64,000 nucleotides of DNA from an uncultured bacterium (lineage in GTDB: Bacteria > Krumholzibacteriota > Krumholzibacteriia > LZORAL124-64-63): NCBI GenBank assembly GCA_903912525.1, contig CAIWHK010000025.1, forward strand, positions 136,881 through 200,880. The letters run 5' to 3'. Numbering within the stretch: position 1 is the first letter of the stretch; each line of letters starts with the position of its first letter. The notes below the pieces were generated by a model that did not search any database, was not told the origin of the DNA, and saw only the letters and a list, made by a program, of their open reading frames with translations. Positions 1,881 through 45,669 of the stretch are shown here, one piece after another. The translations under genes were made by a program, and so were the position numbers.

Positions 1881-1882
1881 TG

Positions 1883-13118: not shown

Positions 13119-13236
13119 GCGCTTGGTCTTCCCGCGTTGCGGTCAGGAGGCACGGCGCCGGTCGCGGCGCGAGGGGTCACTATACACCGTGGCGACCTCC
13201 CGTCGCCACCGGCCGGGTGCGCGCCGCGCCACGGGC

Positions 13237-13971: not shown

Positions 13972-13973
13972 GC

Positions 13974-15225
<1,252 letters not shown>

Positions 15226-15233
<8 letters not shown>

Positions 15234-16190: not shown

Positions 16191-16207
16191 CCGCCCGGCT
16201 CCCGGTG

Positions 16208-17277
<1,070 letters not shown>

Positions 17278-17281
<4 letters not shown>

Positions 17282-18358
17282 GCGACGCCTCCCCCGGCGG
17301 CGGCCGAAGGTCCATCCGTCGGCAGGTCGTAGTACACGCGCTCCTTGAACTCGTCGCCCTCGGGCGTCAGCACGGCGCGCAGCGCGGACATCGCCACCGT
17401 CAACTGGTCGTCATCCGGCCGCTTGGTCGTGATCCGCTGCAGCCACAGCCCGGGCATGATGAACGGCCGCAGGATCCACAGGCGGCAGTACTTGCCCGAC
17501 AGCTTGATGGCCTCGTACGCCAGCCCGCCGATCAGCGGGATGAAGGCCAGGCGCTCCAGCCGGTCGGGCACCGTCTGCGGGCGGCCCAGGAAGCTGAAGA
17601 CCACGATCGAGATCAGCATCACGAAGAACAGGAAACTGGTGCCGCAGCGCGGATGCAGCGTGGTGAAGTCGCGCGCGCCGTCGGCGTCCAGCGACTTGCC
17701 GTTCTCGAAGGCATGGATGCTCATGTGCTCGGCGCCGTGGTACTCGAAGACGCGCGACATGTCCTTCAGCCGGCTGATGAGCCACAGGTAGGCCACGAAC
17801 ATGACCACGCGCACCAGGCCGTCGACCGCGTTCCAGGCGATACTGCCCGACTCCTTGCCGACAATGACATCGGTCAGCAGGATCGGCAGGTAGAAGAACA
17901 GGCCCAGGCTGAGCACGAAGCTCAGGGCCACCGTGCCCCAGGTCATCGCCTTGTCGCGCAGCGACATCTTGCCGCCGGCCACGCGTTCCTCGCTGGCGGC
18001 CTGGTCGGCCGAGAACATCAGGGCATCGATGCCGAGAGTCATGCTCTCGACCAGGTGCACGCCCCCGCGCGCGATCGGGATGTTCAACCAGGGAAAGCGG
18101 CGCACGATGCTGCGGAAGGGCTTCTTGCGGACAACGATGCGGTGGTCCGGCGTGCGCACAGCCATCGCCAGGTACTGGGGGCTGCGCATCATGACGCCCT
18201 CGATCAGCGCCTGCCCGCCCACGGCCAGGTCCATTTGCCGGGCCTCGTTGGCGCCCGGCAGCGCGGGCGCCTCACCGGCGTCCGACAGCAACTCGTCACC
18301 GGGGCCGGCCGCCGCCAACAGCGCCGCCTGCAGGAATCTCGGGAACATCGACCACATC
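17278..18358 (-). CDS. DUF1385 domain-containing membrane protein (commonly upstream of prfA)
   Basis: Conserved DUF1385 region [14 protein letters not shown]...HGAEH; stop overlaps prfA start; start set downstream of the rpmE terminator hairpin (MWSM.., uncertain by a few codons). Confidence 0.65.
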
Positions 18359-18425
18359 CTTCCGGAACGGCCCCAGCGCCCGCCCCGCGGGCCAGGAAAA
18401 CGAGGGCCAAGGGACTGCCCCGATG

Positions 18426-18459
18426 AGAAAAAGGGCACCGGGCAATCTACCCGGCGCCC
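18426..18459 (-). terminator. Rho-independent terminator downstream of rpmE
   Basis: On minus strand GGGCGCCGGG-tagattg-CCCGGTGCCC hairpin followed by TTTTTCTC. Confidence 0.6.
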
Positions 18460-18543
18460 TGTAACATTCGCAAGTCGGACGACATGCTATTCCGGTCACC
18501 TGACCGATCCCGGCCGGGCCGGGCGATCGCCGCGCGACGAGAG

Positions 18544-18762
18544 CTACTTCTTCTGTCCGTAGCTGGCGTCCGCGTACCGCTTGCGGAAACGCTCCACGCG
18601 CCCGGCGGTATCGATGATCTTCTGCTGGCCCGTGAAGAACGGGTGGCATGCCGCGCAGATTTCGACGTTCAGCTTGTCCTTGGTCGACCGCGTGCTGATC
18701 ACATTGCCGCACAGGCAGGTGATGGTGCAGTCCACGTACTTCGGATGGATGTTGTCTTTCAT
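18544..18762 (-). CDS. rpmE: 50S ribosomal protein L31
   Basis: [48 protein letters not shown]... canonical L31 with CxxC...C zinc ribbon. Confidence 0.9.
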
Positions 18763-18930
18763 AGCTCCCGCTGCCTTTGCGCCGGCCGGGGCTTCCCGCC
18801 CCGAGAACGTCTGCTGAGACGCCAAAGAAATAAGGAATGGTGCGGCATGCAAGGGAATTCTGGCCCGGTCTCCCCGCCACCCCCCGGCCGGGCCCCCGAA
18901 AGGGCCCCCAGGGCTCCATTGGGGCCCTTA

Positions 18931-20178
18931 TCAGGCGTTCATGGCCGCCAGGAATCCGGCGTTGTCCTTGGTTTTACTCAACTTATCGATCAGAAACTCC
19001 ATGGCCTCGGTCGGATTGTAATCCGCCAGGTACTTCCGCAGGACCCAGATCTTGGCCAGGTCCTTCGGATCCAGGAGCAGGTCTTCCTTACGGGTGCCCG
19101 ACTTGAAGATGTCGATGGCGGGGTACACCCGGCGATCGGCAATCTTCCGGTCCAGCACCAGTTCCATGTTACCAGTGCCCTTGAATTCCTCAAAAATGAC
19201 CTCGTCCATGCGGCTGCCCGTCTCGATCAGGGCCGTCGCGATGATGGTCAGCGACCCGCCGTCCTCGATGTTGCGGGCGGCGCCGAAGAACCGCTTCGGC
19301 TTCTGCAACGCGTTGGAATCCACACCGCCGGACAGGATTTTTCCCGAGTGGGGCACCACGGCGTTATGTGCGCGCGCCAGGCGGGTGATCGAGTCCAGCA
19401 GGATGACGACATCCATCCCGTTCTCGACCAACCGGCGCGCCTTCGCCAGAACCATGTTGGCCACCTGCACGTGCCGCTCGGCAGGCTCGTCGAAGGTGGA
19501 GCTGACGACCTCGCCCTTGACCGAGCGGGCCATGTCCGTGACTTCCTCCGGGCGCTCGTCGATGAGCAGGACGATCAGGTGCACCTCGGGATGGTTCGTC
19601 GTGATCGCGTTGGCGATCTTCTGCAGGATGACCGTCTTGCCGGCGCGCGGCGGCGACACGATCAGGCCGCGCTGTCCCTTGCCGATGGGCGCCATCAGGT
19701 TGATCAGGCGCGTGGTCATGTTCTTGGGGTCGTGCTCGAGGTTCAGCATCTGCTCCGGGTACAGCGGAGTCAGGTTGTCGAACAGCGTGACCTTCTTGGC
19801 GTTGGCCGGGTCCTTGTAGTTGACGGATTCGACCTTCAGCAGCGCGAAATAGCGCTCGTTGTCCTTCGGGGGACGCACCTGGCCGCTGATGGTGTCGCCG
19901 GTCTTCAGGTCGAACTTCTTGATCTGCGACGGCGAGAGGTAGATGTCGTCGGGACCGGGCAGGTAGTTGTACTTGGCCGACCGCAGGAACCCGTAGCCCT
20001 CGGCCAGCACCTGCAGGACACCCTCGGCGTAGATCAGCCCGTTCTTCTCGGTCTGTCCCTCGAGGATCTTGAAGATCAGCTCGCTCTTGCGCAGCGTGCT
20101 GAGCGCCTCGATGTTCATGCCGCGAGCCACTTCCACGAGCTCGTGGATGTTCATCTCCTGCAGTTCCTTGATATCCAT
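18931..20178 (-). CDS. rho: transcription termination factor Rho
   Basis: N-terminal RNA-binding domain, Walker A GKT / ATPase and Q/R loops; start at MDIKELQEM (cat 20176-20178). Confidence 0.9.
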
Positions 20179-20496
20179 GTCTCTCCTCGAACTCAGGCAG
20201 TGGCGATGCTTTGGGCGCCGGGATTGTGTTCGGCGTGCCGGCCACCCGGGAATCGGGCGGCCATCAGGCATGGCGGGTCGCCACGGTCTCTGATGAAAAA
20301 AATCCTCTGGGTTCAGCAGCGCGGGCCCGGGTCCGGGCAGAAGGCCCCGGTCGGATGGCCCGTTCAGAAGGCCTAGTTCAGGCGGTCATATCGTCCGGTC
20401 GTCATCTATCGGTCGTATCAGCCTAGCACATTCCGGGCCTGAATGCGAGCGGGGGTCGCCCTTCGCACCGGGCCCGGAACGCGCCGGGCAATACCG

Positions 20497-21762
20497 CTAC
20501 GGGTTGCCGGCCGCGGCCAGCTCCTGGTAGCGCTTGAAACTCACGTCGGCACCGAGCGGGTCGCCGGTCTCCAGCTGGGCCATGCTCAGGTACAGGAAGC
20601 CCTGGGCGTTGCCGGGGAAGCGGCCGATCAGTTCGTTGCCCAGCTCGACGGCGCGCTTGAACAGACCGGACGCCTTGTCCAGCTTCTGTTGCTTGAGCGC
20701 CGGGTCGGCCTCGGTGGCCGCGGCGTCCTTGAGGGACTTGCCGTAGTTGAAGACCGTGCGGATGCGCGCCACCAGCGAGTTCTCGGTCGGGAACGTCTCG
20801 AGGATGATCGCGCGGTCGAGCACGCCGATGGCGTCGTCGAAGCGGCCGATCTCGGGCTTGCCGTACCACAGGCCGGCGCTCACCAGCATCCCGATGTTGT
20901 TCCCGTCGTTGTTCGTGTCGGCGTCCTTCTCGTACAGGTCGACGATCTTGACGTACATGTCCGCGGCGCGCTCGTAGTTCTTCTGCTCGGCCGCCAGGCT
21001 GGCGACCTGGATCAGCAGGTCGGTATCCTCGGCGTGCGCGGCCAGCAGGTCGTTGTAGATCTTCGCGGCATCGTCACTGCGGCCCAGCGTGGCCAGCACG
21101 TAGGCCTTGTCCAACTGCAGATCGTACGCCGTCGGATTAGCGACCAGCACCTGGTCCAGCATCTCCAGCGCCTCGGTCAGCAGCTGGGACTTCTTTTCCA
21201 CATATTCGCCCGTCTCGGACATCTGGATCTTCATGCGGGCGATGCTCTTGATCGGCGTCAGCGAATCGGGCAGCGCGGCGTAGGCCAGACGCATGTGGCC
21301 CTCGGCCTGCTCGTAGTAGCGGCTGTCCCAGTCGATCTTGGCCTGGCTCAGGCGCGCACGGTAATTGTAGGCCAGCGAGATATTGACCTTCTCGGTCCAC
21401 TCCGCGGGCTTCAGCTCGATGGCGCGCTTGTACGCCTTGTACGCCAGCTCGTAGTTCTTGATGGCCTCGGGGAAGTCATCCTTGGCCACGGCTTCCTCGG
21501 CCAGCTTGCTGTGCGCCTCGGCGAGGTAGTAGAAGGCGTCCGGCTCATCCTGCGTGAACTCGAAGCCCTCGTGGATCACCTGGACGGCCTTGTTGTAGTT
21601 CTGGTCGTCGATGTACAGGATCGCGCTGGTGGTGTGTGCCGAGCGACAGCCGGCCAGTCCGCCAAGGGCGGCGATGGCCACCAGGCCGGCCAGCATGAAG
21701 GCGCGCGCGAGCGTCCGGGCGCCAGGCGCCGGGCGGGTGGGTTCGGTTCCGTACATCAACAC
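20497..21762 (-). CDS. TPR repeat lipoprotein
   Basis: Lipobox LAGC after signal peptide, multiple TPR-like helical repeats; alternative start at MLAGLVAIA (21696). Confidence 0.55.
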   Translation of the reverse strand: MLMYGTEPTRPAPGARTLARAFMLAGLVAIAALGGLAGCRSAHTTSAILYIDDQNYNKAVQVIHEGFEFTQDEPDAFYYLAEAHSKLAEEAVAKDDFPEAIKNYELAYKAYKRAIELKPAEWTEKVNISLAYNYRARLSQAKIDWDSRYYEQAEGHMRLAYAALPDSLTPIKSIARMKIQMSETGEYVEKKSQLLTEALEMLDQVLVANPTAYDLQLDKAYVLATLGRSDDAAKIYNDLLAAHAEDTDLLIQVASLAAEQKNYERAADMYVKIVDLYEKDADTNNDGNNIGMLVSAGLWYGKPEIGRFDDAIGVLDRAIILETFPTENSLVARIRTVFNYGKSLKDAAATEADPALKQQKLDKASGLFKRAVELGNELIGRFPGNAQGFLYLSMAQLETGDPLGADVSFKRYQELAAAGNP

Positions 21763-21935
21763 GGTTTCCCCCTCGGGAGTGACAGGGCGGCGGCCAGGAT
21801 CGGTTGCGTCGGGTAACCCTGGCGGAGGTGGGGATGACGCCGGCGCGGCAGATGGCGCCGGCCAGCGGAGGCGCGCAGAAGCGGCCTTATTCGCTGTTAA
21901 TTAATAGGAAACCGGGCGCTTGGCTGTCAACCGCT

Positions 21936-22529
21936 TTATTCCTCGCGGTGCCTGCGGTTGCCGTCCCGAACGCCCTTGCCCCGCCGCTCATCGGGGCCCG
22001 CCGGGCGGTCGCCACCGCCCGGGCCGGGCCGCCCCGAATGCCACGGCTCCATCGGCAGCAGCTCCACATACCGGGTCCGTTGTGTCGGGGTCAGCACGTC
22101 GAACTCCTGCAGCAGGAACTCCTGGGTCAGCGAATCGAGGTCGGCCTGGGCATGCCGGACGCCCGCCAGCGCCGCCCGGATCGCCGCCGGGTCGAAGGTC
22201 GCGGCCTCGGACTGTTCGCGCAGGGCCCGCCGGGCGGCCTCGATACGCTCGCGATGGGCGCGCACGGTCGGGGCGTTGGCCGACTGCAACTGCTCCAGGC
22301 GCGCCGTCTGGGCCGGCTCGAGGTCCAGCACCGTGGCCAGCCGGTCGACCCGCCGGTGCATCATCCGCCGCCACGCCACGGAGTCGTCCGTGGCCGGCCG
22401 ATTGCGCCAGGCGCGCGCTGCGGCAGGGGGCCGCCGGGGTTCCTCGCGGAGCGCCCGGATGACGCTCCAGCCGAGGCCGACGTTCAGGCCCAGGGAAACC
22501 AGCAGGACCAGGCGCACCAGGCGGCTCAT
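21936..22529 (-). CDS. LTXXQ motif periplasmic protein (Spy/CpxP/ZraP family)
   Basis: Signal peptide MSRLVRLVLLVSLGLNVGLG; LTQEF and LTPTQRTRY LTXXQ motifs; start overlaps anti-sigma stop (ATGA). Confidence 0.6.
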   Translation of the reverse strand: MSRLVRLVLLVSLGLNVGLGWSVIRALREEPRRPPAAARAWRNRPATDDSVAWRRMMHRRVDRLATVLDLEPAQTARLEQLQSANAPTVRAHRERIEAARRALREQSEAATFDPAAIRAALAGVRHAQADLDSLTQEFLLQEFDVLTPTQRTRYVELLPMEPWHSGRPGPGGGDRPAGPDERRGKGVRDGNRRHREE

Positions 22530-23023
22530 TTCGTCCCTCCGTTGCCGGCGGACTGCCGGCTGTCGGTCACCTCGGCCAGCGCCAGCCACGAATCGGACAG
22601 GCCGCCGGAGGCCTGGTCGTCCCAGGTCGAGTCCTGGAGCCACACGCCGGCCAGGCTGCTGTCGTCAGTGTTGTCGTCGTCAGCCACTGCCGTGCCCCCC
22701 AGGGTTCCGGTCCAGCGGCCGACCAGCACACCCAGCGCCAGGGTCGCCACGGCCAGCGATGCGCGCGCGGTGGCGCTGCGGCCGAAGAACCAACCGGCGG
22801 CTGCCTGCCCGGTCGTCCGCGCCTGCACGCCCGACCACAGGTCGGCGCGCGTAGCCGTCGGCGGCACGGCCGCCGTCGCCAGGATGTCCCACGTCGCCCG
22901 CAGGCGGGCCGCCTCGGCGCAGCAGCCCTCGCACGCGGCCAGGTGCGCCTCGACTTCGCCGGCCCGGGCCGGGTCCAGTTCGCCGCCCAGATGGGCAGCC
23001 AGCATTCCGGTGACGTGTTTCAT
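22526..23023 (-). CDS. transmembrane zinc-finger (ZAS-type) anti-sigma factor
   Basis: HLAACEGCC (H-x3-C-x2-C) motif near N-terminus, single TM helix, start overlaps sigma-factor stop. Confidence 0.6.
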   Translation of the reverse strand: MKHVTGMLAAHLGGELDPARAGEVEAHLAACEGCCAEAARLRATWDILATAAVPPTATRADLWSGVQARTTGQAAAGWFFGRSATARASLAVATLALGVLVGRWTGTLGGTAVADDDNTDDSSLAGVWLQDSTWDDQASGGLSDSWLALAEVTDSRQSAGNGGTK

Positions 23024-23589
23024 GGCCTCTCGTCCTCCTGCGCCAGGTCGACCCGCAGGCCGGCCAGCGCGCGTTGGATCAGCGACTCGACGCCGGCCAG
23101 CGAAGTGCCCATCGTCTCGGCGACCTCCGTGTAGCGCATCCCCTGGAAGCGGTGGAGCACCAGGGCCTGCCGTTGCCGCTCCGGCAGCCGGGCGATGGCC
23201 GCGCGCACGACCTGCGCGGTCTGCTCGGCTTCGATCCCGCGGTCGGCCGCGGGCGTATTCGACGCCACGTCATGGCGTTCGGTGTCCAGCGGCAGCCACT
23301 TGAGCAATCTCGCCCGCCTGCCGCGGCTGCGCGCCAGGTTCGCCGCGATGCGCAGCACCCAGGGGCGGAACTTGCCTTCGGCCCGGTAGCGACCGGCCTG
23401 CCGGAAGACCCGCACGAAGGTCTCCTGCGCCAGGTCCTCCGCATCATCGCGCGAGCCGGTCATGTTGATCAGGAAGGCCAGCACGTCGTGCTGCCAGCGG
23501 TCGACGAGGAGACGGAACGCCGCCTCCTCGCCCGCCGCCGTCCGGGCCATCAGCGTGTCATCATCGATGTCCGGCCGCTGCTGACCCAC
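23020..23589 (-). CDS. ECF (sigma-70 family) RNA polymerase sigma factor
   Basis: Region 2 (FVRVFRQAGRYR...WVLRIAAN) and region 4 HTH (MRYTEVAETMGTSLAGVESLIQRA). Confidence 0.85.
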   Translation of the reverse strand: MGQQRPDIDDDTLMARTAAGEEAAFRLLVDRWQHDVLAFLINMTGSRDDAEDLAQETFVRVFRQAGRYRAEGKFRPWVLRIAANLARSRGRRARLLKWLPLDTERHDVASNTPAADRGIEAEQTAQVVRAAIARLPERQRQALVLHRFQGMRYTEVAETMGTSLAGVESLIQRALAGLRVDLAQEDERP

Positions 23590-23606
23590 GCTCGTCCGGC
23601 CTTTCG

Positions 23607-24239
23607 TCAGTCGGTCTTCTGGTCGGGCCGGTTCCGGTGCTGGCGGCGGCCGCCACGACGCTCGGCATCCATGCCGTCGGCGCCAGGCCGACCGGGGCCG
23701 CGGCCGCCGTGCATGTAGGGGCCACGCGGGCCGCCCGGACCGAAGCCGCCACGCCCCCCGCCGATCATCATCAGCTTGTCGCGCTGGTCTTCGGTCAGCA
23801 GCTTGCGCATGGCCAGCCGATCCAGCAGGCGACCCGCCTGCAACTGGCTGCGCAGGTCACCGGCCTGCTTCGACAGGGCGAGCACCGTCTTCTCGGAAGG
23901 GTCGTCCTTCATCATCTCGCCCTGCAGGTCGTGCCGGAGCAGGCGCGCCTGCTTGCGCAGCGGCAGGTCACGGGCGCGGCCGGCCTCGAAGATCTTCGCG
24001 ATCGCGTCCTGCTGCGCGTCGGTCAGTTCCAGTCGCCGCGCCATGCGGGCGCGGAAGCCGGGTTCGAAATCGGCGGTGTCGTCGTCGGCGTCGGCGCGCG
24101 CGGCCATGCCGGGGACGTCGGGGCCGTCAGCGGCCAGGTCGTCGTCCTGCGCCAGGACCGGGATGGCGGCGGTCGCCAGGACCGCCAGGACCACCCCCAG
24201 GAGGGCGCGCCGGATCGGGAATCGGATCGGCTTCAACAT
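23607..24239 (-). CDS. LTXXQ motif periplasmic protein (Spy/CpxP/ZraP family), Gly-rich C-terminus
   Basis: Signal peptide; LTDAQQDAI and LTEDQRDKL LTXXQ motifs; 17 nt upstream of the ECF sigma gene. Confidence 0.6.
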   Translation of the reverse strand: MLKPIRFPIRRALLGVVLAVLATAAIPVLAQDDDLAADGPDVPGMAARADADDDTADFEPGFRARMARRLELTDAQQDAIAKIFEAGRARDLPLRKQARLLRHDLQGEMMKDDPSEKTVLALSKQAGDLRSQLQAGRLLDRLAMRKLLTEDQRDKLMMIGGGRGGFGPGGPRGPYMHGGRGPGRPGADGMDAERRGGRRQHRNRPDQKTD

Positions 24240-24344
24240 GATGGTCACCTCTGCCTGTTCGCGCCCCCGAGGGGCGCCTGCCTTGTGGTCCGCGGGATTC
24301 ATGCATGCGCGAGCCCTAACGCGGCAGGTCGGCGGCGCCAGCGG

Positions 24345-26399
24345 TCAACGTTGCAGATCCTCGACCACCTTGGCGAGGTTGGTCGTCAGGTCGGGGTGGC
24401 CGGGGGCCACGCGCAGGCCCTCGCGGAAGACGTCGGCGGCCTCGGCCAGCGACCCGCCGCGGGCCAGCAGGATGCCCAGGTCGACGTAGGCCTGGGGATT
24501 GCCCGGGTGCCAGCGGCGCAGTTCGCGCGCCGCGGCCAGCGCCTGCTCGCGACGGCCGGCCTGCTCGCTCAGCACGGCGGACAGGTGCAGGAGATCGACG
24601 TCGCGCGGGTGGGCCTGCAACGCCTGCAGCACGCGCGGGTAGGCCTCGTCGCGGCGCTTCTGCTCGAGCTGCAGGCGGATGACCTGCTTCAGCAGGTCGA
24701 GGTTCTGCGAGACGGCGCCGCAACCCTCCAGGAGCGTCTTCTCGGCGCCGGCGGCATCGCCGCGCTCGTACTGCACCATCGCCAGGCCCAGCCACGGCGC
24801 CGGGCCGCCGGCCTTGCCCACCAGCGCCTGGCGGTAGAGTGCCTCGGCGCGCGCCAATGAACCGTCGTCGTGTGTGGCGGAACCGACCTGGGCCCAACGC
24901 AGCGCCTCGTTGGCAGCAGCCATCGCCTTCCAGTCGCGGCGAATGTTCCCCAGACCCCAGGGCACGACCAGCAGCACGGCGACCAGCCACGGCGCCCACG
25001 CACGCCACTGCCGCGCGCGCGGCAGGCCATCGCCCAGCAGGCGCGCGATCGCCAGGCCGGCCAGCAGCGCCAACGCCGGCACCAGCGCCAAGCGGTAGCG
25101 CGAGACCACGAAGAAGACGCTCTGCACCGCCAGCAGCGCCAGCAGAACGACGGCCCACCAGCGCGATGCCGGCAGGCGCCAGGCGCCGGCCAGCCCGACC
25201 AGGCCCAGGACCGCGATCAGCGCATACGGCGCCACGAGCGCGCGCAGCGAAGGCGCCGAGTTCGTCCAGCCGTCGATGGTGGTCAACTGGTCGATCTCCC
25301 AACCCTGGAGGTGCAGGCGCACCTTCCTGAGCCACAGCCCGGCCGCGCGCGCCGGATGCTGGCGGATCGAGGCCAGGGCTGCGTCGGCCCACAGGCTGTC
25401 CGCCTGCGCGAGGCTGACCGAGGGCCGGTCGAAGCGCTCGGCCAGGAAGGCGCGGCCGGCGGGATCGAGGAGCCACGAGCCGGGCACCACGGCCACATAG
25501 AAGCCGTTCGCCTCCGGCCCGTTGCCGATGTAGAGATTCACGCCGCCGTTCAGCGCCGGGCCAACCAGCCGGCCGGCCGCCTTCGAATTGCGGGCCGCCG
25601 CCGGGGCCAGCACCACGAGCGCACCGAGAACCACCGCCGCGACGGCCACCGCGCGATGCGCACGGCTGCCCGCCCGGGCCCCCGCGGCCGCCGGTCGGGC
25701 CGGCCACGCCGCCGCAGCCATGCCCACGGGCAACAGCGCCACCGACGTGCCGCGCAGCAGCGTGGCCAGGCCGACCACCACGCCCAGCAGGGCCGCGCGC
25801 GCCACGACGGGCCAGGCGGGCGCGGGCTTCGCGGCCGGGTCCACGCGCCAGGTCGCATCCCAGGTCGCGAGCGCCAGGAAGACAGTCACCAGGAAGGCGA
25901 GCGGCACATCGAGCAGGATGGTGACTGCGTACACCGCGGCCGGCCGATACAGCGCGAACAGCGCCGCCGGCAGCCACACGACCAGTGTCCGCTTCCAGCC
26001 CCCGGGGACCAGCGACGCCAGATGGCGGCCCGCCATCACGCGCAGCAACGCGACGATGCCCAGCCAGCAGCCGAACTGGACCAGGCGGATGCCGCGCAAC
26101 TGTTCCGGACGATAGACGCGCGCGGTCGGGTCGGCCGGGGCGCTGCCGCTCAGCTCGATCAGACGCGGGTAGAGGGGCGACATGTAGGCGGGCTCGGTCG
26201 GGTCCGCTGGGGCCGCGGCGCGGTCGAGGTAGTAGATCTCGTCGAGGATGGGCGCGCGCCCGAAGACCGAGCGTTCGGCCTGCGGCAGGAACACGGCCCA
26301 GAACGCGGCCAGCAGCAGGCCGGCGACGAGCAGGCCCAGGAAGCGGCGAGGCGCGCCGCTCCCGGCCGCAGGCGCAGCAAAGCCGCGCCGCGCGCTCAC
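24345..26399 (-). CDS. GT39 (PMT/ArnT-like) membrane glycosyltransferase with C-terminal TPR repeats (TMTC-like)
   Basis: Multi-TM N-terminal region with DE loop motif (ILDEIYY), C-terminal TPR repeats; start proposed at GTG overlapping ychF stop (GTGA), uncertain. Confidence 0.6.
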   Translation of the reverse strand: MSARRGFAAPAAGSGAPRRFLGLLVAGLLLAAFWAVFLPQAERSVFGRAPILDEIYYLDRAAAPADPTEPAYMSPLYPRLIELSGSAPADPTARVYRPEQLRGIRLVQFGCWLGIVALLRVMAGRHLASLVPGGWKRTLVVWLPAALFALYRPAAVYAVTILLDVPLAFLVTVFLALATWDATWRVDPAAKPAPAWPVVARAALLGVVVGLATLLRGTSVALLPVGMAAAAWPARPAAAGARAGSRAHRAVAVAAVVLGALVVLAPAAARNSKAAGRLVGPALNGGVNLYIGNGPEANGFYVAVVPGSWLLDPAGRAFLAERFDRPSVSLAQADSLWADAALASIRQHPARAAGLWLRKVRLHLQGWEIDQLTTIDGWTNSAPSLRALVAPYALIAVLGLVGLAGAWRLPASRWWAVVLLALLAVQSVFFVVSRYRLALVPALALLAGLAIARLLGDGLPRARQWRAWAPWLVAVLLVVPWGLGNIRRDWKAMAAANEALRWAQVGSATHDDGSLARAEALYRQALVGKAGGPAPWLGLAMVQYERGDAAGAEKTLLEGCGAVSQNLDLLKQVIRLQLEQKRRDEAYPRVLQALQAHPRDVDLLHLSAVLSEQAGRREQALAAARELRRWHPGNPQAYVDLGILLARGGSLAEAADVFREGLRVAPGHPDLTTNLAKVVEDLQR

Positions 26400-27451
26400 A
26401 CGCTGAACCTGATCTCGATGATGTCGCCGTCCTGGACCACGTAGGCCTTGCCCTCGAGGCGCACCTTGTTGGCGGCCTTGGCCGCCGACATGTCGCCGGC
26501 GGCGATCAGGTCCTCGTACCCGGTGACCTCGGCGCGGATGAAGCCGCGCTGCAGGTCCGAGTGGATGGCGCCCGCGGCGACCGGCGCCGTCGAGCCGCGA
26601 CGCACCGTCCAGGCGCGGCACTCGTCCGGCCCCACGGTGAAGAAGCTCTGCAGTTCGAGCGCGGCGTAGGCGGCGCGGATCATGCTGCCGAATGCGGGTT
26701 CGGCGATGCCCATGTCGGCCAGGAACTCGGCGGCTTCCTCGGCCGACAGTTCGGCCAGCTCGGCCTCGATGCGCGCGCACAGCGACACAACGGCGGCGCC
26801 CGCCTGCTCGGCGGCGGCCATCACGTCGGCGCCGGGATCGGTGCTTTCCTCGTGGTTGAGCACGATGATCATCGGCTTGCTGGTCAGGAACGCGTACCCC
26901 ACCGAGAGCTTGGCGTCGTCGACCGTCAGCGTCAGTTCACGCAACGGGCGGCCGGCCTCGAGCTGCTCCTTGAAGCGCTCCATCAGAGGCTGTTCGAGCG
27001 GGTTGGCCACCTTGCCCAGCCGCGCCTTGTCCTTGATCAGGCGATCGAGGCGGTTCTCGACGATCTGCAGGTCGGCCATGACCAGTTCGAGCGCGAGGTT
27101 CTCGATCTCGCCCTTCGGGTCGGACGGGCCGTAGCCGCCGTCGAAGCAGCGCACGACCTGCGCCAGCGCATCGACCTTGCGGGCATGCTCCAGGAAGCGG
27201 ACCGCTTCGCGCGCGCCGTCGGCGCCGACGCCGCCGGCGAACCCGGGGACATCGACCCACGAGATGGCCGCGTACACGGTGCGCTTCGGCTTGAACATCG
27301 CCGTCAGGCGGTCCAGGCGCGCGTCGGGCACATGCCCGGTCGCCAGGTACGGATCGACGCCGCCCTGGCCGGTGGGCCGGCTGCCGCCGGTGATGACGTT
27401 ATGGAGGGTGGTCTTGCCCGTGAACTTCAGACCGATCAGCCCGACCTGCAC
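26396..27451 (-). CDS. ychF: redox-regulated ATPase YchF (Obg family GTPase)
   Basis: MQVGLIGLKFTGKTTLHN... G1-G4 motifs and C-terminal TGS domain. Confidence 0.9.
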   Translation of the reverse strand: MQVGLIGLKFTGKTTLHNVITGGSRPTGQGGVDPYLATGHVPDARLDRLTAMFKPKRTVYAAISWVDVPGFAGGVGADGAREAVRFLEHARKVDALAQVVRCFDGGYGPSDPKGEIENLALELVMADLQIVENRLDRLIKDKARLGKVANPLEQPLMERFKEQLEAGRPLRELTLTVDDAKLSVGYAFLTSKPMIIVLNHEESTDPGADVMAAAEQAGAAVVSLCARIEAELAELSAEEAAEFLADMGIAEPAFGSMIRAAYAALELQSFFTVGPDECRAWTVRRGSTAPVAAGAIHSDLQRGFIRAEVTGYEDLIAAGDMSAAKAANKVRLEGKAYVVQDGDIIEIRFSV

Positions 27452-27563
27452 TGCATGCGCTCCTGGGACAGGGTGCTTTCATGGGGACGCGTTCTCGCGC
27501 AAGAATAGGCCCCGCCGCGCGCAGGGCCAAACGCCAACCGGACGGATGCGGGTCCGGGAACGA

Positions 27564-27983
27564 TCAGTCGCCGGGCGGCTCGGGCGTGGCCCAGGGCGAG
27601 GCGTTCTCGTACGGGTCGGACCAGTCGGACCAGGGGCCGGCCACGCCGCCCGCGGTCGTCCCGCGCACGCGCACCAGGTACGAGTGGTAATAGTCGAGCG
27701 TCAGCCAGACGACATGGGAATCGACCGGCCCGGCCACCCTCGTGAAGGTCAGCGGACTGACCAATTCCTCGACACTGCGGGTCAGATCCCGGACCTGGGC
27801 TTCGTACCGTGCGGGCGCCGACTGGCTGGCCGAAACAGGCGCCGCGGCGAACGCCACGCGCACCAGGGCATCGCGGGCCCGGACTTTGTCGCCCCCGGCC
27901 GCACGCAGCCAGGCGGCCGTTCCCAACCCTGCGCAAAGGGCAACTACCACAATGATCAGCCTGATTTTCCGCGATCTGGTCAT
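27564..27983 (-). CDS. hypothetical membrane-anchored protein (FN3-like beta domain)
   Basis: N-terminal signal anchor, C-terminal WSDWSD-containing beta-rich domain; no confident family. Confidence 0.4.
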   Translation of the reverse strand: MTRSRKIRLIIVVVALCAGLGTAAWLRAAGGDKVRARDALVRVAFAAAPVSASQSAPARYEAQVRDLTRSVEELVSPLTFTRVAGPVDSHVVWLTLDYYHSYLVRVRGTTAGGVAGPWSDWSDPYENASPWATPEPPGD

Positions 27984-28271
27984 GGCTCTTCCCGTCCCGG
28001 GAGCACCCGGGGTCGCAAGGTCGTGGGGCCGGCTAACGGCATTCCCCCGAGGGGCTAACGGACAAGATACCAGATCGGCCCCGCGCTTGCTACCACCGGG
28101 AGGGACGTTCGGCCGGCGCCCCCAATGGGGTCAAGAACGGCTTTTCATGTGTTTCCTGTTGCCGCGCCGGGTGCCGAACCGGCATATTCAGGGAACAAAC
28201 CCCTGATTCGGCTCCTTACACGCCGAGCCCCGGAGGGATCCGGGCGACACGTCTGGGTTTGTGCACGGAGG

Positions 28272-30017
28272 ATGGATCGTTTGCGCCGCCTGCTCCTGAC
28301 AATCTTCATCACCTGCGCAGCGACCGCGCTTCCCGCCTGGGGGGCCGATCTTCGCGTTCCCGGCACCTATGCCACGATCAGCGCGGCGCTCTCGTCCGCG
28401 TCCGCCGGTGACCGTGTGCTCGTGACCGCCGGGACGTACCGCGAGCACGGGCTGGTCCTTCGCGACGGTGTTGTCCTGGCCGGCGCCGGCCCATCGCCCG
28501 ACGCCGTCATCATCGACGGCCAGGACGCCGGCCGCATCCTCACCTGCGAGAACACGACGCGCGCCGCGGAAGTGCGCAACCTGACCTTTACGCGCGGCCG
28601 CGCCGTCGGCGCCACGCTGCGCGAAGGCAGCGGCGGCGCCATCCTGTGCAACCATGCCGCGCTGACCATCGCCGACTGTCATTTCCGCGGCAACAGCGCC
28701 GAACAGAACGGCGGCGCCGTCTGGATTCTCGAGGCGTCGCCCACGATCACCGGCTGCGTGTTCAGCGGCAACACGGCCGGCGGCGGCGGCGGCGGCGTCG
28801 ATTGCACGCTCAACGCATCGCCCAGCCTGCAGAACTGCCGCTTCGAGAACAACCAGGCCGACTGGGGCGCCGGCCTGTCGTGCCGCGACATCTCGTCGCC
28901 CGTCGTCATCTCCACGATGTTCATCGCCAACACGACCGTCGGGACCCGCGGCTACGGCGGCGGCGCGTTCGCCGACCTCGACTCGAAGCCCGCCTTCCTG
29001 TCCTGCACCTTCACGGCGAACCAGGCGCGCTACGGCGGCGCGGTGGCGAACTTCGCCGGCGCCGACGCCACGCTGGTGCGCTGCACGCTGGTCGGCAACC
29101 ACGGCACCTGGCGCGGCGCAGGCATCTACACGAACAACGCCTCGACGACGATCGGCGCGAGCATCATCGCCTTCCATGACGGCCCCGGCGTGTTCTCGGG
29201 CGGGACCTACGGCCCGCAACTGAACCAGTGCGACCTCTACGGGAACACCGGCGGCAACTGGACGGGCGCCGCGGCGCCCGCAGGCATCGGAGCCGCAAAC
29301 CTGGCGCGCAACCCGCTGTTCTGCGTCGCTTCCGACCCGGCGACGCTGACGTTCGCCCTGCAGGACGGCTCGCCCTGCCACCCCGACAGCAACGGGGGCC
29401 TGACGCTCGGTGCCTGGCCTGCCGGCTGCGGCGCTCCCCTGCCCTCCACGCTCCAACTGGCCGCGAACTGGGCCGGCAACCAGGCCCGCCTGGCCTGGAG
29501 CCTGCCGGACGGCCTGGGCGTGGTGCCCGCGTTCCGGCTGACGGGCGCGCTGGCGACCACGCCCGAGGTAACCTGGGAGATCCCGTTCACCGACCAGGGC
29601 GGCGGGCAGTTCGTCGCCGACGACCCCGGCGCCGCGCTGCAGGGCGAAGGCCCGTTCACCTGGTGCCTGTATGCGCAGTTCGCGGGCGGGGACTGGACGC
29701 TGATGGCGCAGGTGACCATGGACCTGCCGCGCGACGTGCCGGGCGTCAGCCATGTCATGGCGGCGCCGAATCCGTTCAACCCAGCGACGTCGATCCGCTT
29801 CCAGCTTGCCGTGTCCCAGCGCGTGCGCGTGACGGTTTACGACATGGTGGGACGGCTGGTGGCGAGACTGGCCGACCAGGTCTTCACGGTCGGCGAGAAC
29901 GCGGTCACCTGGGACGGGCAGGCCGACGATGGTCGCGACCTGGCGTCGGGCACCTACCTGGTCCTGGTCGACAGCCCGGGGCGCGAGGTCTCGACCAAGG
30001 TCACGCTGTTCAAATAA
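28272..30017 (+). CDS. right-handed parallel beta-helix repeat protein with C-terminal T9SS-type (NPFNP / FlgD-Ig-like) sorting domain
   Basis: Signal peptide after GGAGG RBS; repeated NxxGGA/pectin-lyase-fold repeats; C-terminus NPFNPATSIRFQL...VYDMVGRLV...WDGQADDGRDLASGTYLVLV...KVTLFK. Confidence 0.7.
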   Translation: MDRLRRLLLTIFITCAATALPAWGADLRVPGTYATISAALSSASAGDRVLVTAGTYREHGLVLRDGVVLAGAGPSPDAVIIDGQDAGRILTCENTTRAAEVRNLTFTRGRAVGATLREGSGGAILCNHAALTIADCHFRGNSAEQNGGAVWILEASPTITGCVFSGNTAGGGGGGVDCTLNASPSLQNCRFENNQADWGAGLSCRDISSPVVISTMFIANTTVGTRGYGGGAFADLDSKPAFLSCTFTANQARYGGAVANFAGADATLVRCTLVGNHGTWRGAGIYTNNASTTIGASIIAFHDGPGVFSGGTYGPQLNQCDLYGNTGGNWTGAAAPAGIGAANLARNPLFCVASDPATLTFALQDGSPCHPDSNGGLTLGAWPAGCGAPLPSTLQLAANWAGNQARLAWSLPDGLGVVPAFRLTGALATTPEVTWEIPFTDQGGGQFVADDPGAALQGEGPFTWCLYAQFAGGDWTLMAQVTMDLPRDVPGVSHVMAAPNPFNPATSIRFQLAVSQRVRVTVYDMVGRLVARLADQVFTVGENAVTWDGQADDGRDLASGTYLVLVDSPGREVSTKVTLFK

Positions 30018-30933
30018 CAGGGCGCGGCTGGTCAACCGGCCGGAAATCCCAGGCAGGAGCGCGGCCGCCGCGCCGACGGGCCACGATGCCCGCGGCAGGG
30101 CGGCCGTCGTCGTCGAAGCCCTCCTCGTGCGCCAGCACGTCCCAGTGCGGCGCCGCGAAGGCGCGGACCAGCTCGCCCGGCCGCAGGCGATGGCGCGCGG
30201 TGACATCGTCGGGCAGGCCCGGCGCCTCGCGGAACGTGCGCACGACCGCCACCCCACCATCGCCCACCAGGTCGCCCATCCGCGCCAGCACGCCGCGATC
30301 CAGACAGCGGATGTTCACGACCACGGCCCAGGGGCCGGGCGGCAACGCGTCGACGGCGCGCACGTCGGCGTCGACCACGCGCAGCGGGACGCAGCGACTG
30401 GCGGCCAGCCGCTCTGCCAGCACGAGGGCCTCCGGTTGCCAGTCGACGCCGGTGACGCGGTAGCCGCGCGCGGCCAGCCAGACCGCGGCGCGGCCGGAAC
30501 CGCAACCGAGGTCGAGCACCGGGCCGAGCGCCGGCGGCGGCAGCAGTCCGGCGTGCGCCACGAGCCAGTGCGGCGGCTGCCACAGCGTGCGGTCGCTGGG
30601 GCCGCGTTCGACCCATTGGGCGGGCAGTCGTTCCAGCGCCGATTCATCGACAGCGATGGCCGCCAGGCGCGCGCGGCCTCGGCCGGCCAGCGCTCGAGCC
30701 AGCCCCTGCGCCCGCTCACCGGTGGCCGCCACAACCAGCAGCGGCCGGTGGCGCGGCGGCAGGAAAATCGACGGCAGACCGGCATCCAGCTGCGCTGGAT
30801 CAGCGGCCAGGTCGGCCACCCCGGGCATCGACACGGCACCGCTCAGGTGCCCTGCCGCGAACACCCCGCACTCCCTCTCGTCCAGGACAGCCGCAGACGG
30901 GTCCTGGGCCAGGAAACCCACGACTGCCTGCAT
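30010..30933 (-). CDS. fusion of a Cys-less rhodanese-homology domain and a TehB-like class I SAM methyltransferase
   Basis: N-terminal rhodanese fold lacking the CRxGxR cysteine; C-terminal VLDLGCGSGRAAVWLAARGYRVTGVD SAM-binding motif resembling TehB; start codon uncertain (ATG 30933 or upstream GTG). Confidence 0.55.
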   Translation of the reverse strand: MQAVVGFLAQDPSAAVLDERECGVFAAGHLSGAVSMPGVADLAADPAQLDAGLPSIFLPPRHRPLLVVAATGERAQGLARALAGRGRARLAAIAVDESALERLPAQWVERGPSDRTLWQPPHWLVAHAGLLPPPALGPVLDLGCGSGRAAVWLAARGYRVTGVDWQPEALVLAERLAASRCVPLRVVDADVRAVDALPPGPWAVVVNIRCLDRGVLARMGDLVGDGGVAVVRTFREAPGLPDDVTARHRLRPGELVRAFAAPHWDVLAHEEGFDDDGRPAAGIVARRRGGRAPAWDFRPVDQPRPVI

Positions 30934-31123
30934 GTCGTTGTCTTGAAACAAGATGAAACTCACGCTGCGCCCTCCCGAACACCCGGGGACCTTTTGGTGG
31001 CCCCTACCCAATGCGTGCTTTATTATCGCCCCCCCGGGCCGAAATCAAAACCGGGACAGCGTTCGTGCTTCCCGCTCAAGCCCGTTCCGACGGCCCGGAT
31101 GCCGCCGCCCAGGAGAAACGCAC

Positions 31124-33751
31124 ATGCCATCGATCCGCAAGTTCGTCGTCACGCCCAACCTGCCCGACCCGCTCAAGCCGTTGCTCGACATCGCGCGCAA
31201 CGTCTGGTGGAGCTGGAATGTCGAGGCCATCTCGCTGCTCCGGCGCGTCGATCCCGACCAGTGGGACCGGCACGCCGGCAACCCGGTGGCGGTGCTCGGC
31301 TCACTGTCGGCGCAGCGGGTGCGCGAACTCGAGCGCGACCAGGCGTTCCTGGCCCACCTCGAGCGCGTGCAGGGCGACCTCGAGCGCTACCTGACGCACC
31401 CGACGTGGTACGCAAGCGAGCACCAGGGCGTCGGCGAGGGCCTGGTCGGCTATTTCTCGCTGGAGTTCGGCCTGCACGAATCGTTGCCGCTGTACTCCGG
31501 CGGCCTGGGCATCCTCGCGGGCGACCACCTGAAGTCCGCCACCGACCTGGGCATCCCCCTGGTCGGCGTGGGCCTGGCCTACCAGTCCGGCTACTTCCGC
31601 CAGTACCTGAACCATGACGGCTGGCAGATGGAGGAGTACCCGGTCAACGACTTCTACAACATGTCGATGTCGCTGGAGCGTGACAAGGACGGCGCGCCGC
31701 GCCTGATCGAGGTGCACTACCCGGGCCGCTCCATCTTCGCGCAGATCTGGCGCCTGCAGGTGGGCCGCAACCCCCTGTTCCTGCTGGACACCAACGTGAT
31801 GGAGAACCAGCCCGACGACCGCGACCTGACCGCGCGCCTGTACGGCGGCGACAACGACATGCGCATCCGTCAGGAGATCATGCTGGGCATCGGCGGCCTG
31901 CGCGCCCTGATCGCGCTGGGGCTCGAGCCCACGGTGTGCCACATGAACGAGGGCCACTCGGCGTTCCTGGCGCTCGAGCGCATCAACCTGCTGATGAAGC
32001 ACCGCAAGCTGGCGTTCGAGACGGCGTTCGAGATCGTGCGCGCCAGCAGCATCTTCACCACGCACACGCCGGTGCCCGCGGGCAACGACCACTTCCCGCC
32101 CGAGCTGGTGCGCACCTACCTGGCGCGCAAGGCCGACGAGATGGGTATCGGCATCGATCGGCTGCTGGCGCTGGGTCGCCAGGACCCGCAAAACACGGCC
32201 GAGACCTTCTGCATGACGGTGCTGGCGCTGCGGCTGAGCCGATTCGCCAACGGCGTCAGCGAGCTGCACGGCCACGTCTCGCGCAACATGTGGCAGCGCG
32301 TGTGGCCCGAGGTGCCCGAGAACGAGATCCCCATCACCCACGTGACCAACGGCATCCACACCCGCAGCTGGCTGTGCTCGGAGATCGCGCGCCTGTACGA
32401 CCGCTATCTCGGGCCCCGCTGGTACGAGGAGCCCACGAACAAGACGTTGTGGGACCGCGTGGACCAGATCCCGGACGCCGAGCTCTGGCGCTCGCACGAG
32501 CGCATGCGCGAGCGGCTGGTCGGCTTCACCCGCAGCCGGCTGCGCAAGCAACTGAAGCGCCGCGGCGCCAACCGCATCTGGATCAAGGCGGCCAGCGAGG
32601 CGCTGGACCCCGAGGCCCTGACCATCGGGTTCGCGCGCCGGTTCGCCACGTACAAGCGCGCGGCGCTGTTGCTTTCGGACCCGGAGCGGCTGAGCCGCAT
32701 CCTGAACAACCCGGACCGCCCGGTGCAGCTGATCTTCGCCGGCAAGGCCCACCCGAAGGACCACCCGGGCAAGGAAGTCATCCGCCAGCTGGTGCACATG
32801 GCCGAGCGCGAGGAGTTCCGCAAGCGGATCGTCTTCGTCGAGGACTACAACATCGAGGTGGCGCGCTACCTGGTGCAGGGCGTGGACGTGTGGCTGAACA
32901 ATCCGCGGCGGCCGCTCGAAGCCAGCGGCACCAGCGGCATGAAGGTGCCGCCCAACGGCGGCATCAACCTGTCGGTGCTCGACGGCTGGTGGTGCGAGGG
33001 ATACAAGACGGACAATGGCTGGGCCATCGGCGCCGGCGAGGAATACGACGACCAGAACTACCAGGACGACGTCGAGAGCACGGCGCTGTACGACCTGCTC
33101 GAGAACGAGATCGTGCCGACGTTCTACGACCGCGGCCTGGACGGCGTGCCGCGCGAGTGGACGCGCATCATGAAGAACTCCATGCGCACAGTGAACGCCG
33201 AGTTCAACACCAACCGCATGGTCGAGGAATACACCGAGCGCTTCTACATCCCCTGCCTGGACAACATGCGGCGCCTGGCCGCGGACAACCACGCGCTGGC
33301 CGCCGACCTGGCCGACTGGCGCCGGCGGCTGCACGCGAACTGGCATGGCGTGCAGATCCTGTCCGTCGATGCACCGCCGCTCAAGGCGCAGCCGATGGGC
33401 GCCATGCTGCCGGTCACGGCACAGGTGCGGCTGGGCCCGATCAGCTCCGACGAGGTGCTGGTCGAGGTCTACCACGGCCTGCTGGACACGAACGGCCACA
33501 TCGACAACGGCGAGACCGCCACGATGTTCGCCCAGGGCAAGCCCACGAACGACGGCGTGGTCACCTTCAAGGGCGAGATCCCCTGCCGGCGCGCCGGGCG
33601 CCGCGGGTTCTCGGTCCGCCTGGTGCCGCGCAAGGACGGTGTGCCGCTGGACCGCTTCGAGACCGGCCTGATCTGCTGGTGGCACGACGAGTCGGTCGAA
33701 CCGTCGCCGACGCCGCAGGGCGCCTCGGGACAGACGGTGCACTCGCACTAG
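31124..33751 (+). CDS. glgP: alpha-glucan phosphorylase (GT35, GlgP-family)
   Basis: Full-length alpha-glucan family phosphorylase; pyridoxal-phosphate lysine region (SGTSGMKVPPNGG); AGGAGA RBS before ATG 31124. Confidence 0.85.
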   Translation: MPSIRKFVVTPNLPDPLKPLLDIARNVWWSWNVEAISLLRRVDPDQWDRHAGNPVAVLGSLSAQRVRELERDQAFLAHLERVQGDLERYLTHPTWYASEHQGVGEGLVGYFSLEFGLHESLPLYSGGLGILAGDHLKSATDLGIPLVGVGLAYQSGYFRQYLNHDGWQMEEYPVNDFYNMSMSLERDKDGAPRLIEVHYPGRSIFAQIWRLQVGRNPLFLLDTNVMENQPDDRDLTARLYGGDNDMRIRQEIMLGIGGLRALIALGLEPTVCHMNEGHSAFLALERINLLMKHRKLAFETAFEIVRASSIFTTHTPVPAGNDHFPPELVRTYLARKADEMGIGIDRLLALGRQDPQNTAETFCMTVLALRLSRFANGVSELHGHVSRNMWQRVWPEVPENEIPITHVTNGIHTRSWLCSEIARLYDRYLGPRWYEEPTNKTLWDRVDQIPDAELWRSHERMRERLVGFTRSRLRKQLKRRGANRIWIKAASEALDPEALTIGFARRFATYKRAALLLSDPERLSRILNNPDRPVQLIFAGKAHPKDHPGKEVIRQLVHMAEREEFRKRIVFVEDYNIEVARYLVQGVDVWLNNPRRPLEASGTSGMKVPPNGGINLSVLDGWWCEGYKTDNGWAIGAGEEYDDQNYQDDVESTALYDLLENEIVPTFYDRGLDGVPREWTRIMKNSMRTVNAEFNTNRMVEEYTERFYIPCLDNMRRLAADNHALAADLADWRRRLHANWHGVQILSVDAPPLKAQPMGAMLPVTAQVRLGPISSDEVLVEVYHGLLDTNGHIDNGETATMFAQGKPTNDGVVTFKGEIPCRRAGRRGFSVRLVPRKDGVPLDRFETGLICWWHDESVEPSPTPQGASGQTVHSH

Positions 33752-42647: not shown

Positions 42648-42940
42648 GCAGGAGGACCTCGCGCGGGAATCGGGAGGTGATGACTCCGGCACCAAGGGCG
42701 GAGTCAGGGCAACGGCACCATAACCGTCAATGATGGTACCACATATAGATGCGCGCGGCAGCAGGAAAAATCAAATGATTCTCAACTGGAAGCCCGGGCT
42801 ACAAAGATCCCGATTATGTGATTTCGGATTGATTGAGGCCGTTCAGCGGATCTGGTACGATAAACGGGAAGGACTTGGGGGCCGACAGGGACTTTGCATT
42901 TCGGCATGTTCGCCGTCGCCGCCGTTCCCGAACGCTGAGG

Positions 42941-45616: not shown

Positions 45617-45669
45617 GATTTCCCGATCCCTTTCCCTGTTCGGCGCCGACGCCGGCGCCGGGTCGCGGC

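Follow-up and report, generated by a model that had tools for sequence, protein, structure and literature searches.

Fusion of a rhodanese-homology domain lacking the catalytic cysteine with a TehB-like methyltransferase in Krumholzibacteriota, and an apparently unrelated rhodanese–methyltransferase gene pair in the same window

The TehB proteins of Escherichia coli, Salmonella, and Haemophilus influenzae (2xva, 4dq0, 2i6g, 3m70) are the closest solved relatives of the methyltransferase domain described here. The N-terminal domain of H. influenzae TehB is DUF1971/cupin-like. Rhodaneses are found together with methyltransferases in the anaerobic ergothioneine pathway (EanB with EanA, the latter of the EgtD type and not TehB-like) and in the tRNA xo5U34 systems (TrhO with TrmR or CmoB); in all of these the rhodanese needs its catalytic Cys, and additional domains are present. 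The stretch of DNA analyzed here, referred to below as the window, comprises 64,000 nucleotides (69.6% G+C) from an uncultured bacterium of the Krumholzibacteriota and encodes a single polypeptide in which a rhodanese-homology domain is followed by a TehB-like class I S-adenosylmethionine (SAM) methyltransferase. An earlier note on this DNA had drawn attention to this fusion, as well as to a second pair of adjacent genes, a rhodanese (rhod2) and a methyltransferase (MT2), and had read the recurrence as one functional unit, once fused and once split, in which handling of a chalcogen (S/Se/Te) is followed by methylation, serving volatilization or detoxification. We consider it rather more probable that the fusion combines a dead rhodanese domain with a methyltransferase that may act on a small anionic nucleophile, and that the second pair is unrelated to it and coincidental.

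The fusion is real, with a correction of the end of its gene. It lies within the open frame 30010–31011 of the minus strand and probably starts at GTG 30963, yielding a product of 317 residues, rather than at ATG 30933, the start assumed previously (30010–30933, 307 residues). The GTG, located ten codons 5' of the ATG, is preferred because a GGGAGG Shine–Dalgarno sequence is found 6 nt upstream of it and because two homologues, P0001 (99% identical) and P0002 (88% identical), are called as proteins of 317 residues with the same start point (MSFILFQDN...). The AlphaFold2 (AF2) model of the fusion is characterized by a predicted local distance difference test (pLDDT) value of 90.7 and a predicted template modeling score (pTM) of 0.86. 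In Pfam scans, Methyltransf_25 matches residues 139–210 with 48.3 bits, and the Rhodanese profile matches the N-terminal domain with 18.9 bits, below its gathering score of 22.2. No solved structure spanning both domains was found, the best query-normalized TM-score in Foldseek being 0.46, and the literature search yielded no paper on a rhodanese–TehB-type fusion or on the genes discussed here in Krumholzibacteriota.

The N-terminal domain has the α/β fold of rhodaneses, without the active-site Cys that opens the conserved six-residue loop (C-R-x-G-x-R/S/T). Residue 69, which corresponds to the catalytic Cys of rhodaneses, is Ala (46) or Gly (30) in 76 of 82 homologues and Cys in only two, and residues 70–74 are variable, bearing out across the family what the earlier note had remarked on for this one protein. 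The sole well-conserved Cys of the entire fusion protein is that of methyltransferase motif I. Because the catalytic Cys is lost and the active-site loop is unconstrained, the domain is predicted to be unable to transfer sulfur or selenium, or to carry a persulfide or perselenide, and the loss speaks directly against a role in chalcogen handling.

The conserved elements of this domain are found elsewhere. Forty columns are invariant over the 82 aligned members of the family, and those within the N-terminal domain comprise the structural rhodanese motif D18-x-R20...H29, the segment L-P54-S-I-F-L58-P59-P-R61-H, and the turn R85-G-R87. The second of these elements, LPSIFLPPRH, is a nearly invariant, family-specific motif in the loop before the central β-strand: P54, L58, P59, and R61 are invariant in the 82 sequences, and S55, I56, and P60 are conserved in at least 90% of them. 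An alignment of 22 N-terminal domains contains 16 invariant columns (P54, S55, L58, P59, P60, R61, R85, and R87 among them), most of which are still invariant in the larger set. The motif is specific enough to serve as a scan pattern and was used to retrieve the fusion family. A profile search with the N-terminal domain in 1.84 billion representative proteins gave 1427 matches, with near-full matches confined to proteins of ~300 residues and to shorter ones; the former are taken to be the fusion family and the latter are probably its fragments. The remaining matches are multi-rhodanese proteins, aligned at the D-x-R...G-H motif, and the version of the rhodanese domain that bears LPSIFLPPRH appears to exist only within the fusion.

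Since LPSIFLPPRH and the R-G-R turn both precede β-strands, the topology would place them across the domain from the former active-site loop. When the N-terminal domain is modeled alone, the pLDDT of the LPSIFLPPRH loop falls from 95 to 88, in a comparison of two alignments that differ in depth. The fusion is probably a rigid two-domain enzyme of Krumholzibacteriota with a SAM-dependent methyltransferase half. We propose that the new invariant surface lies against this half or supplies the remaining part of its substrate site, and that the dead rhodanese domain may thereby serve in substrate binding, as a lid, or in docking.

The methyltransferase half belongs to the class I SAM-dependent enzymes, is minimal in size and basic, and has the TehB-type fold as its nearest structural neighbor. 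In a phmmer search of the PDB, residues 135–273 of the fusion were aligned with residues 31–173 of Salmonella TehB (E 1.3e-9), and motif I, as had been pointed out before, is strongly TehB-like. The Pfam TehB profile (PF03848) exceeds its gathering score (25.8 versus 20.4 bits), with a match limited to profile positions 32–70 of 193, around motif I. This score would favor a chalcogen substrate, as would the nature of the nearest solved relatives, TehB and Ecm18, both of which act on chalcogen centers (tellurite and selenite for TehB and a disulfide for Ecm18, in part according to the entry titles). The more specific models argue the opposite. The NCBIfam TehB equivalogs NF008405, NF008992, and TIGR00477 reach 33.7, 33.1, and 31.5 bits, respectively, versus cut-offs of 218, 303, and 219.5, with the matches restricted to motifs I–II, and TPMT (PF05724) reaches 20.4 bits over 48 residues only, versus a gathering score of 26. 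The quinone methyltransferase models of NCBIfam are as distant (UbiG, 20.5 versus 102.95; MenG/UbiE, 14.6 versus 158), and the Pfam and NCBIfam scans place neither the fusion methyltransferase nor MT2 in any named family. The comparison with the TehB, TPMT, and UbiE families that the earlier note had proposed thus gave no assignment: neither methyltransferase reaches the NCBIfam cut-offs for TehB or UbiE/UbiG, or the gathering score of Pfam TPMT.

The fused methyltransferase domain shows 24% identity to E. coli TehB, relative to which all members of the family lack four residues after β4 and six in the C-terminal hairpin. The latter correspond to the ELHRTD segment of TehB, which we take to hold His/Arg residues implicated in catalysis, and its deletion is a further point against chemistry on a chalcogen. 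The hairpin residues of TehB are reportedly His176, Arg177, and Arg184; of the three, the later Arg alone may have a counterpart in the fusion, R278. In turn, the domain is strongly basic, with a median pI across the family of 9.6 (5.7 for the N-terminal domain); R148, R192, R209, R235, and R249 are invariant and R232 is conserved in at least 90% of the members. Taken at the level of sequence, the basic pI and the invariant Arg residues would be consistent with an anionic substrate. The fusion may transfer a methyl group from SAM to a small, negatively charged nucleophile by TehB-like SN2 chemistry, a proposal to which we give a somewhat less than even chance. It is quite improbable, in our estimate, that the dead rhodanese has more specifically been re-used to bind an anion or deliver the substrate, by way of the LPSIFLPPRH/R-G-R surface, in a new, phylum-specific class of methyltransferase of a metalloid or chalcogen oxyanion (selenite, tellurite, arsenic) or of a phospho- or sulfo-metabolite.

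The closest relatives in sequence of the fused methyltransferase domain are unnamed, stand-alone class I SAM-dependent methyltransferases of ~180–210 residues, 30–37% identical over residues 113–288, which are found in Desulfobacterota, Acidobacteriota, and Beta- and Gammaproteobacteria (for example, P0391 of Dechloromonas hankyongensis). Common to them and to the fusion are an N-terminal helix (P..WL..H), the motif GPVLDL[AG]CG.GR, L.R after β4, and [YR][ET]TF...G.P...LL.PGEL. The stand-alone proteins have no rhodanese domain, and they have YETF where the fusion has RTFR. Their family comprises at least 7982 clusters at 90% identity (E ≤ 1e-10). Source names among the 120 matches listed are generic only, and all NCBIfam models stay below their cut-offs for this family. 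When all neighboring open reading frames (ORFs) in 39 stand-alone loci were clustered, the conserved neighbors were lineage-specific housekeeping genes only (in Burkholderiales, dapA–bamC, a Sua5/YrdC-like gene, and the M50/HtpX proteases; in Acidobacteriota, a HesB-like gene and isocitrate dehydrogenase), and no functional clue common to different phyla emerged from these loci. In seven loci of Burkholderiales and relatives (L029, L047, L048, L051, L058, L064, and L083) the gene stands directly upstream of dapA and co-oriented with it, at ~6000–7500, in what is a conserved arrangement; four of them (L047, L051, L058, and L083) have Sua5/YrdC-like, M50 protease, and htpX genes upstream, and possibly bamC after dapA. 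Two proteobacterial loci (L023, L034), one of them from Rhodoferax, seemed to match further toward the N terminus, but these matches were rejected as spurious upstream extensions of the ORF.

A search of 5.8 billion proteins retrieved a tight fusion family of ~290–320 residues and 47–99% identity, in which the named taxa are Krumholzibacteria/Krumholzibacteriota and, occasionally, "Gemmatimonadales". When one genome of each GTDB species was scanned, full-length matches were limited to metagenome-assembled genomes (MAGs) labeled as Krumholzibacteriia/Krumholzibacteriota, as an unclassified "bacterium", or as "uncultured Fibrobacteraceae", the last label being probably mistaken; matches in other phyla cover residues ~113–288, i.e., the methyltransferase domain, only. 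The fusion is therefore a conserved, vertically inherited family of a single candidate phylum, the Krumholzibacteriota, and its architecture, being conserved, is not due to chance. In 17 of 17 related loci (41–64% identity) the gene is single and fused, and the order glgP | fusion → (β-helix) → ychF is preserved, with the fusion divergent from glgP and upstream of ychF. The convergent gene of a secreted β-helix protein is inserted between the fusion and ychF in many of the related genomes and not in all; otherwise, the fusion is directly upstream of ychF. The minus-strand array to which it belongs (11178–30963) continues with ychF, a TPR gene, LTXXQ/ECF sigma/anti-sigma genes (21936–24344), another TPR gene, rho, rpmE (~18544–18927), DUF1385, prfA, prmC, murA, PAP2, and selB. 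This co-oriented housekeeping array downstream of the fusion is a stable synteny throughout Krumholzibacteriota.

The main alternative to a small-molecule substrate is a macromolecular target in translation, be it rRNA, tRNA, or a ribosomal protein or factor; the dead rhodanese domain would then dock RNA or protein. We regard this alternative as unlikely. No RNA-methyltransferase family comes near its cut-off, the best NCBIfam scores being those of RlmC (19.9 versus 553), Erm (14.9 versus 212), CmoM (13.8 versus 366), and TrmB (16.2 versus 112.65), so that the outcome which the earlier note had named as damaging to its own proposal, a confident placement among rRNA or tRNA methyltransferases, did not materialize. 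The β-helix gene that in most lineages lies on the opposite strand between the fusion and ychF means that co-transcription of the two is not obligatory. Additionally, the closest relatives are minimal methyltransferases of ~180 residues, of the small-molecule type, which elsewhere stand in unrelated contexts, such as upstream of dapA in Burkholderiales.

The gene neighborhood offers little to a chalcogen substrate either. The window does contain selB, as had been stated, and the organism thus encodes SelB, a point in favor of such a substrate; the gene is located 17 kb from the fusion, inside an unrelated housekeeping array, next to ispG (GcpE, 10057–11340), and selA and selD do not adjoin it. 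Genes for Se, Te, or As functions (tehA, ars, selD, selA, or other metalloid genes) were not found near the fusion or the second pair, which counts against chalcogen handling, and the TehA partner is missing from the 64-kb window and from the 17 related fusion loci alike. The Rfam scan of the whole window revealed no riboswitch or leader upstream of either the fusion or the second pair.

The second pair is as real as the fusion, with MT2 and the gap of 61 nt between the genes as described before and with rhod2 reaching 63061, not 63040. The single-domain rhod2 has an intact CRxGxR loop (CRNGVRT), also as described. Among 16 orthologues the Cys is retained in all, and the C-R-x-G-x-R-T loop in 15, with Leu in place of the first Arg in the remaining one. 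It is probably an ordinary, active rhodanese, and its intact catalytic loop is a point in favor of a sulfur- or selenium-handling step, although it is not a part of the fusion system. MT2 (57.6 bits to Methyltransf_25) belongs to a separate family of Krumholzibacteriota that is equally well conserved, with an invariant N-terminal MAFY.DFAG.Y followed by GNVLPHL and FQTVNFDP. Its best profile matches in the PDB are 3cgg, 1wzn, and sugar or glycine N-methyltransferases; the Pfam and NCBIfam scans gave no TehB or TPMT match, and the quinone methyltransferase models remain far below their cut-offs (UbiG, 30.2 versus 102.95; UbiE, ~16 versus 216).

The fusion methyltransferase and MT2 are 28% identical over 118 residues around motif I (one pairwise comparison, E 8e-5), whereas the fused rhodanese domain shows no significant similarity to rhod2 (E 0.066) and a hidden Markov model built from the N-terminal domain of the fusion does not match rhod2 at E ≤ 1. 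Since the methyltransferases match at motif I only and the rhodanese domains are not significantly similar, the split pair is not an unfused form of the fusion, and there is no homology between the two pairs. This removes the recurrence on which the proposal of a chalcogen-handling unit was built. With at least three class I methyltransferases in the window (the fusion, MT2, and prmC), the chance that a rhodanese gene has a methyltransferase neighbor can be roughly estimated at several percent. The second pair is a plain adjacency between genes of two common types.

The conservation of this adjacency was followed in 45 loci with MT2 orthologues. In the close clade (MT2 75–82% identical), the order SIMPL–rhod2–MT2–PBP5–TPR seen in the window is present in all seven loci with enough upstream sequence, with rhod2 and MT2 co-oriented and separated by 94–153 nt. 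In the distant loci (MT2 48–57% identical), rhod2 is directly upstream of MT2 in none of 26, and in 21 of them that position is taken by a divergent Usp gene. A rhod2 orthologue is located 0.57–2.4 kb upstream of MT2 in eight of the 17 distant loci that extend at least 2.6 kb upstream, beyond Usp and sometimes beyond a further gene of ~1.8 kb, which in L088 is an NHL-repeat gene on the opposite strand. Outside the clade of the window (L087, L088, L089, and ~20 metagenome loci), MT2 stands beside a divergent Usp gene, and on its other side there is often a TrpB-like PALP enzyme, then PBP5 and TPR. Thus, the truly conserved neighborhood of MT2 is the divergent pair Usp | MT2, and the rhod2–MT2 adjacency is a derived state of a single clade, not an ancient operon. 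Lack of conservation in related genomes had been named by the earlier note as evidence that would weaken its proposal, and this is largely what was found. The two genes are ordinary core genes, each conserved separately, which in this lineage would have become neighbors by the loss of the oppositely oriented Usp gene, with or without one more gene.

It could be argued that SIMPL–rhod2–MT2 is nonetheless a genuine operon in the clade of the window, with a coupled function (e.g., generation of a persulfide or thiol, followed by S-methylation) that is independent of the fusion. The co-orientation and short gaps in all seven loci of the clade would fit such an operon, as would the arrangement in the window itself, where SIMPL ends 2 nt ahead of rhod2 and a simple scan found no terminator-like site in the gap between rhod2 and MT2, with the reservation that a scan for promoters or terminators is uninformative at 70% G+C. 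Nevertheless, we consider it improbable: the seven loci come from one shallow clade and amount to one evolutionary event, and in the rest of the phylum there are oppositely oriented genes in between or no rhod2 in the neighborhood.

Two observations concern the loci of this comparison. In L085 (GCA_016703265.1, a long-read MAG; 5283–6000), one of the seven loci of the close clade, rhod2 is full of frameshifts and insertions, most likely reflecting assembly noise rather than a pseudogene; the flanking MT2 protein does not differ from its counterpart in L086. In the window, a partial gene upstream of SIMPL (63810–64000, minus strand), ending at 63810, probably represents the 3' terminus of citF, as L086 and L088 have citE and citF (citrate lyase) at this place.

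On one JGI contig, orthologues of the fusion and of MT2 are found ~57 kb apart, indicating that their co-occurrence within 64 kb reflects an inherited order of the chromosome and not a functional unit. Therefore, the proposal that rhodanese and methyltransferase form a recurrent module for chalcogen handling and methylation finds no support, because homology between the pairs is lacking, the rhodanese of the fusion is dead, the adjacency of the split pair is not conserved (direct in seven of seven loci at 75% identity or above and in none of 26 at 48–57%, with an oppositely oriented gene in between), and neither family membership nor context provides a link to Se or Te. The rhod2 orthologues within 2.4 kb of MT2 in eight of 17 distant loci speak for it, and, together with the points in its favor given above, leave it very improbable as a whole and a minority possibility for the fusion alone. 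The preferred reading, a dead-rhodanese methyltransferase of a small anion next to an unrelated pair, is in turn weakened by two points. LPSIFLPPRH is placed at the domain interface or substrate site only tentatively, by the fold topology combined with a high pTM and the slight fall in pLDDT of its loop; and the proximity of rhod2 to MT2 in about half of the distant loci may reflect some loose functional link.

Table 1. Positions in the window of the fusion, its domains and motifs, its neighbors, and the second pair.
Feature	Position	Strand	Basis
Fusion gene (dead rhodanese-homology domain + TehB-like class I SAM methyltransferase)	30010–30963	-	ORF, Pfam and NCBIfam scans, AF2 model
N-terminal rhodanese-homology domain, predicted non-catalytic, residues 1–112	30598–30933	-	
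LPSIFLPPRH, nearly invariant family-specific motif, residues 53–62	30748–30777	-	
Position of the canonical rhodanese active-site loop, residues 69–74 (AATGER), without Cys, not conserved	30712–30729	-	82 homologues
Class I SAM methyltransferase domain, TehB-like, basic, residues 118–288	30070–30582	-	
SAM-binding motif I, GPVLDLGCGSGR	30490–30525	-	Alignment with E. coli TehB GKTLDLGCGNGR; invariant columns
glgP-type alpha-glucan phosphorylase, conserved divergent neighbor	31121–33751	+	Pfam scan; synteny
Secreted β-helix gene, convergent, between fusion and ychF	28125–30017	+	
ychF, conserved downstream neighbor	26396–27478	-	Pfam scan; synteny in 17 related loci
prmC	15226–16287		
selB	11178–13142	-	Pfam scan
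rhod2, single-domain rhodanese, 133 residues	62660–63061	-	Pfam PF00581, 41.8 bits (gathering 22.2)
rhod2 active-site loop, CRNGVRT	62777–62797	-	
MT2, class I SAM methyltransferase, 237 residues, Methyltransf_25/11 core and conserved C-terminal subdomain	61885–62598	-	

Some further features of the window were noted. The secreted β-helix protein, with PMP repeats, is one of three secreted proteins with a C-terminal domain of the FlgD_ig/Por_Secre_tail type, the others being a protein with endonuclease I and lamin-tail domains (39921–42770, minus strand) and a Laminin_B-domain protein (57631–58608, plus strand); their C-terminal domains suggest a sorting signal similar to that of the type IX secretion system (T9SS). 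ARAGORN reports a tRNA-Leu(gag) at 44734–44824 on the plus strand, antisense within a TPR/PMT_2 ORF (43613–45850, minus strand). This call is probably a false positive, since Rfam at its gathering threshold shows no tRNA at that position. A YebC/PmpR-family gene (3400–4176, plus strand), which appears unusually Lys-rich and has a G+C content below that of its surroundings, and an NFACT/RqcH-like gene of the DUF814 type (~1205–3322, plus strand) were both missed by a simple gene-finding filter based on G+C content at third codon positions (GC3).

Comparison with described rhodanese–methyltransferase systems does not reveal a counterpart. Readings as EanA/EanB-like or TrhO/TrmR-like were rejected for want of a catalytic Cys, for wrong sizes and architectures, and for background scores: rhod2 is a single domain of 133 residues, compared with ~430 residues in EanB, and the models or chains of ovoA_Cterm, CmoM, and OvsM score only at background level. 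AzCIB_0135 from Aromatoleum, a TPMT, was likewise discarded as unrelated. That common types of domain occur together twice within 64 kb thus comes down to one true fusion and a conserved chromosome order, with no functional module.

The fusion differs from TehB in its N-terminal domain, which has a rhodanese fold, unlike the N terminus of H. influenzae TehB, as well as in conserved motifs of its own (N-x-R-x-L, RTFR, and RHRL-x-P-x-EL). It differs from the catalytic single-domain rhodaneses GlpE and PspE in having no active-site Cys and an unconstrained loop, and from the inactive rhodanese-homology domains (the docking domains of MKP/DUSP, USP8, and the mitoribosomal mL94) in being joined to a methyltransferase and in carrying LPSIFLPPRH. 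Its substrate, if found, would assign a function to a core gene of an entire uncultured phylum and provide a lead for the stand-alone TehB-like methyltransferases, a very large family that numbers some 8000 clusters or more (90% identity). The fusion would also add a bacterial example of the rhodanese fold re-used non-catalytically beside a methyltransferase, and it represents a form of a known enzyme class with an accessory domain that has not been described before and that is limited to a single candidate phylum.

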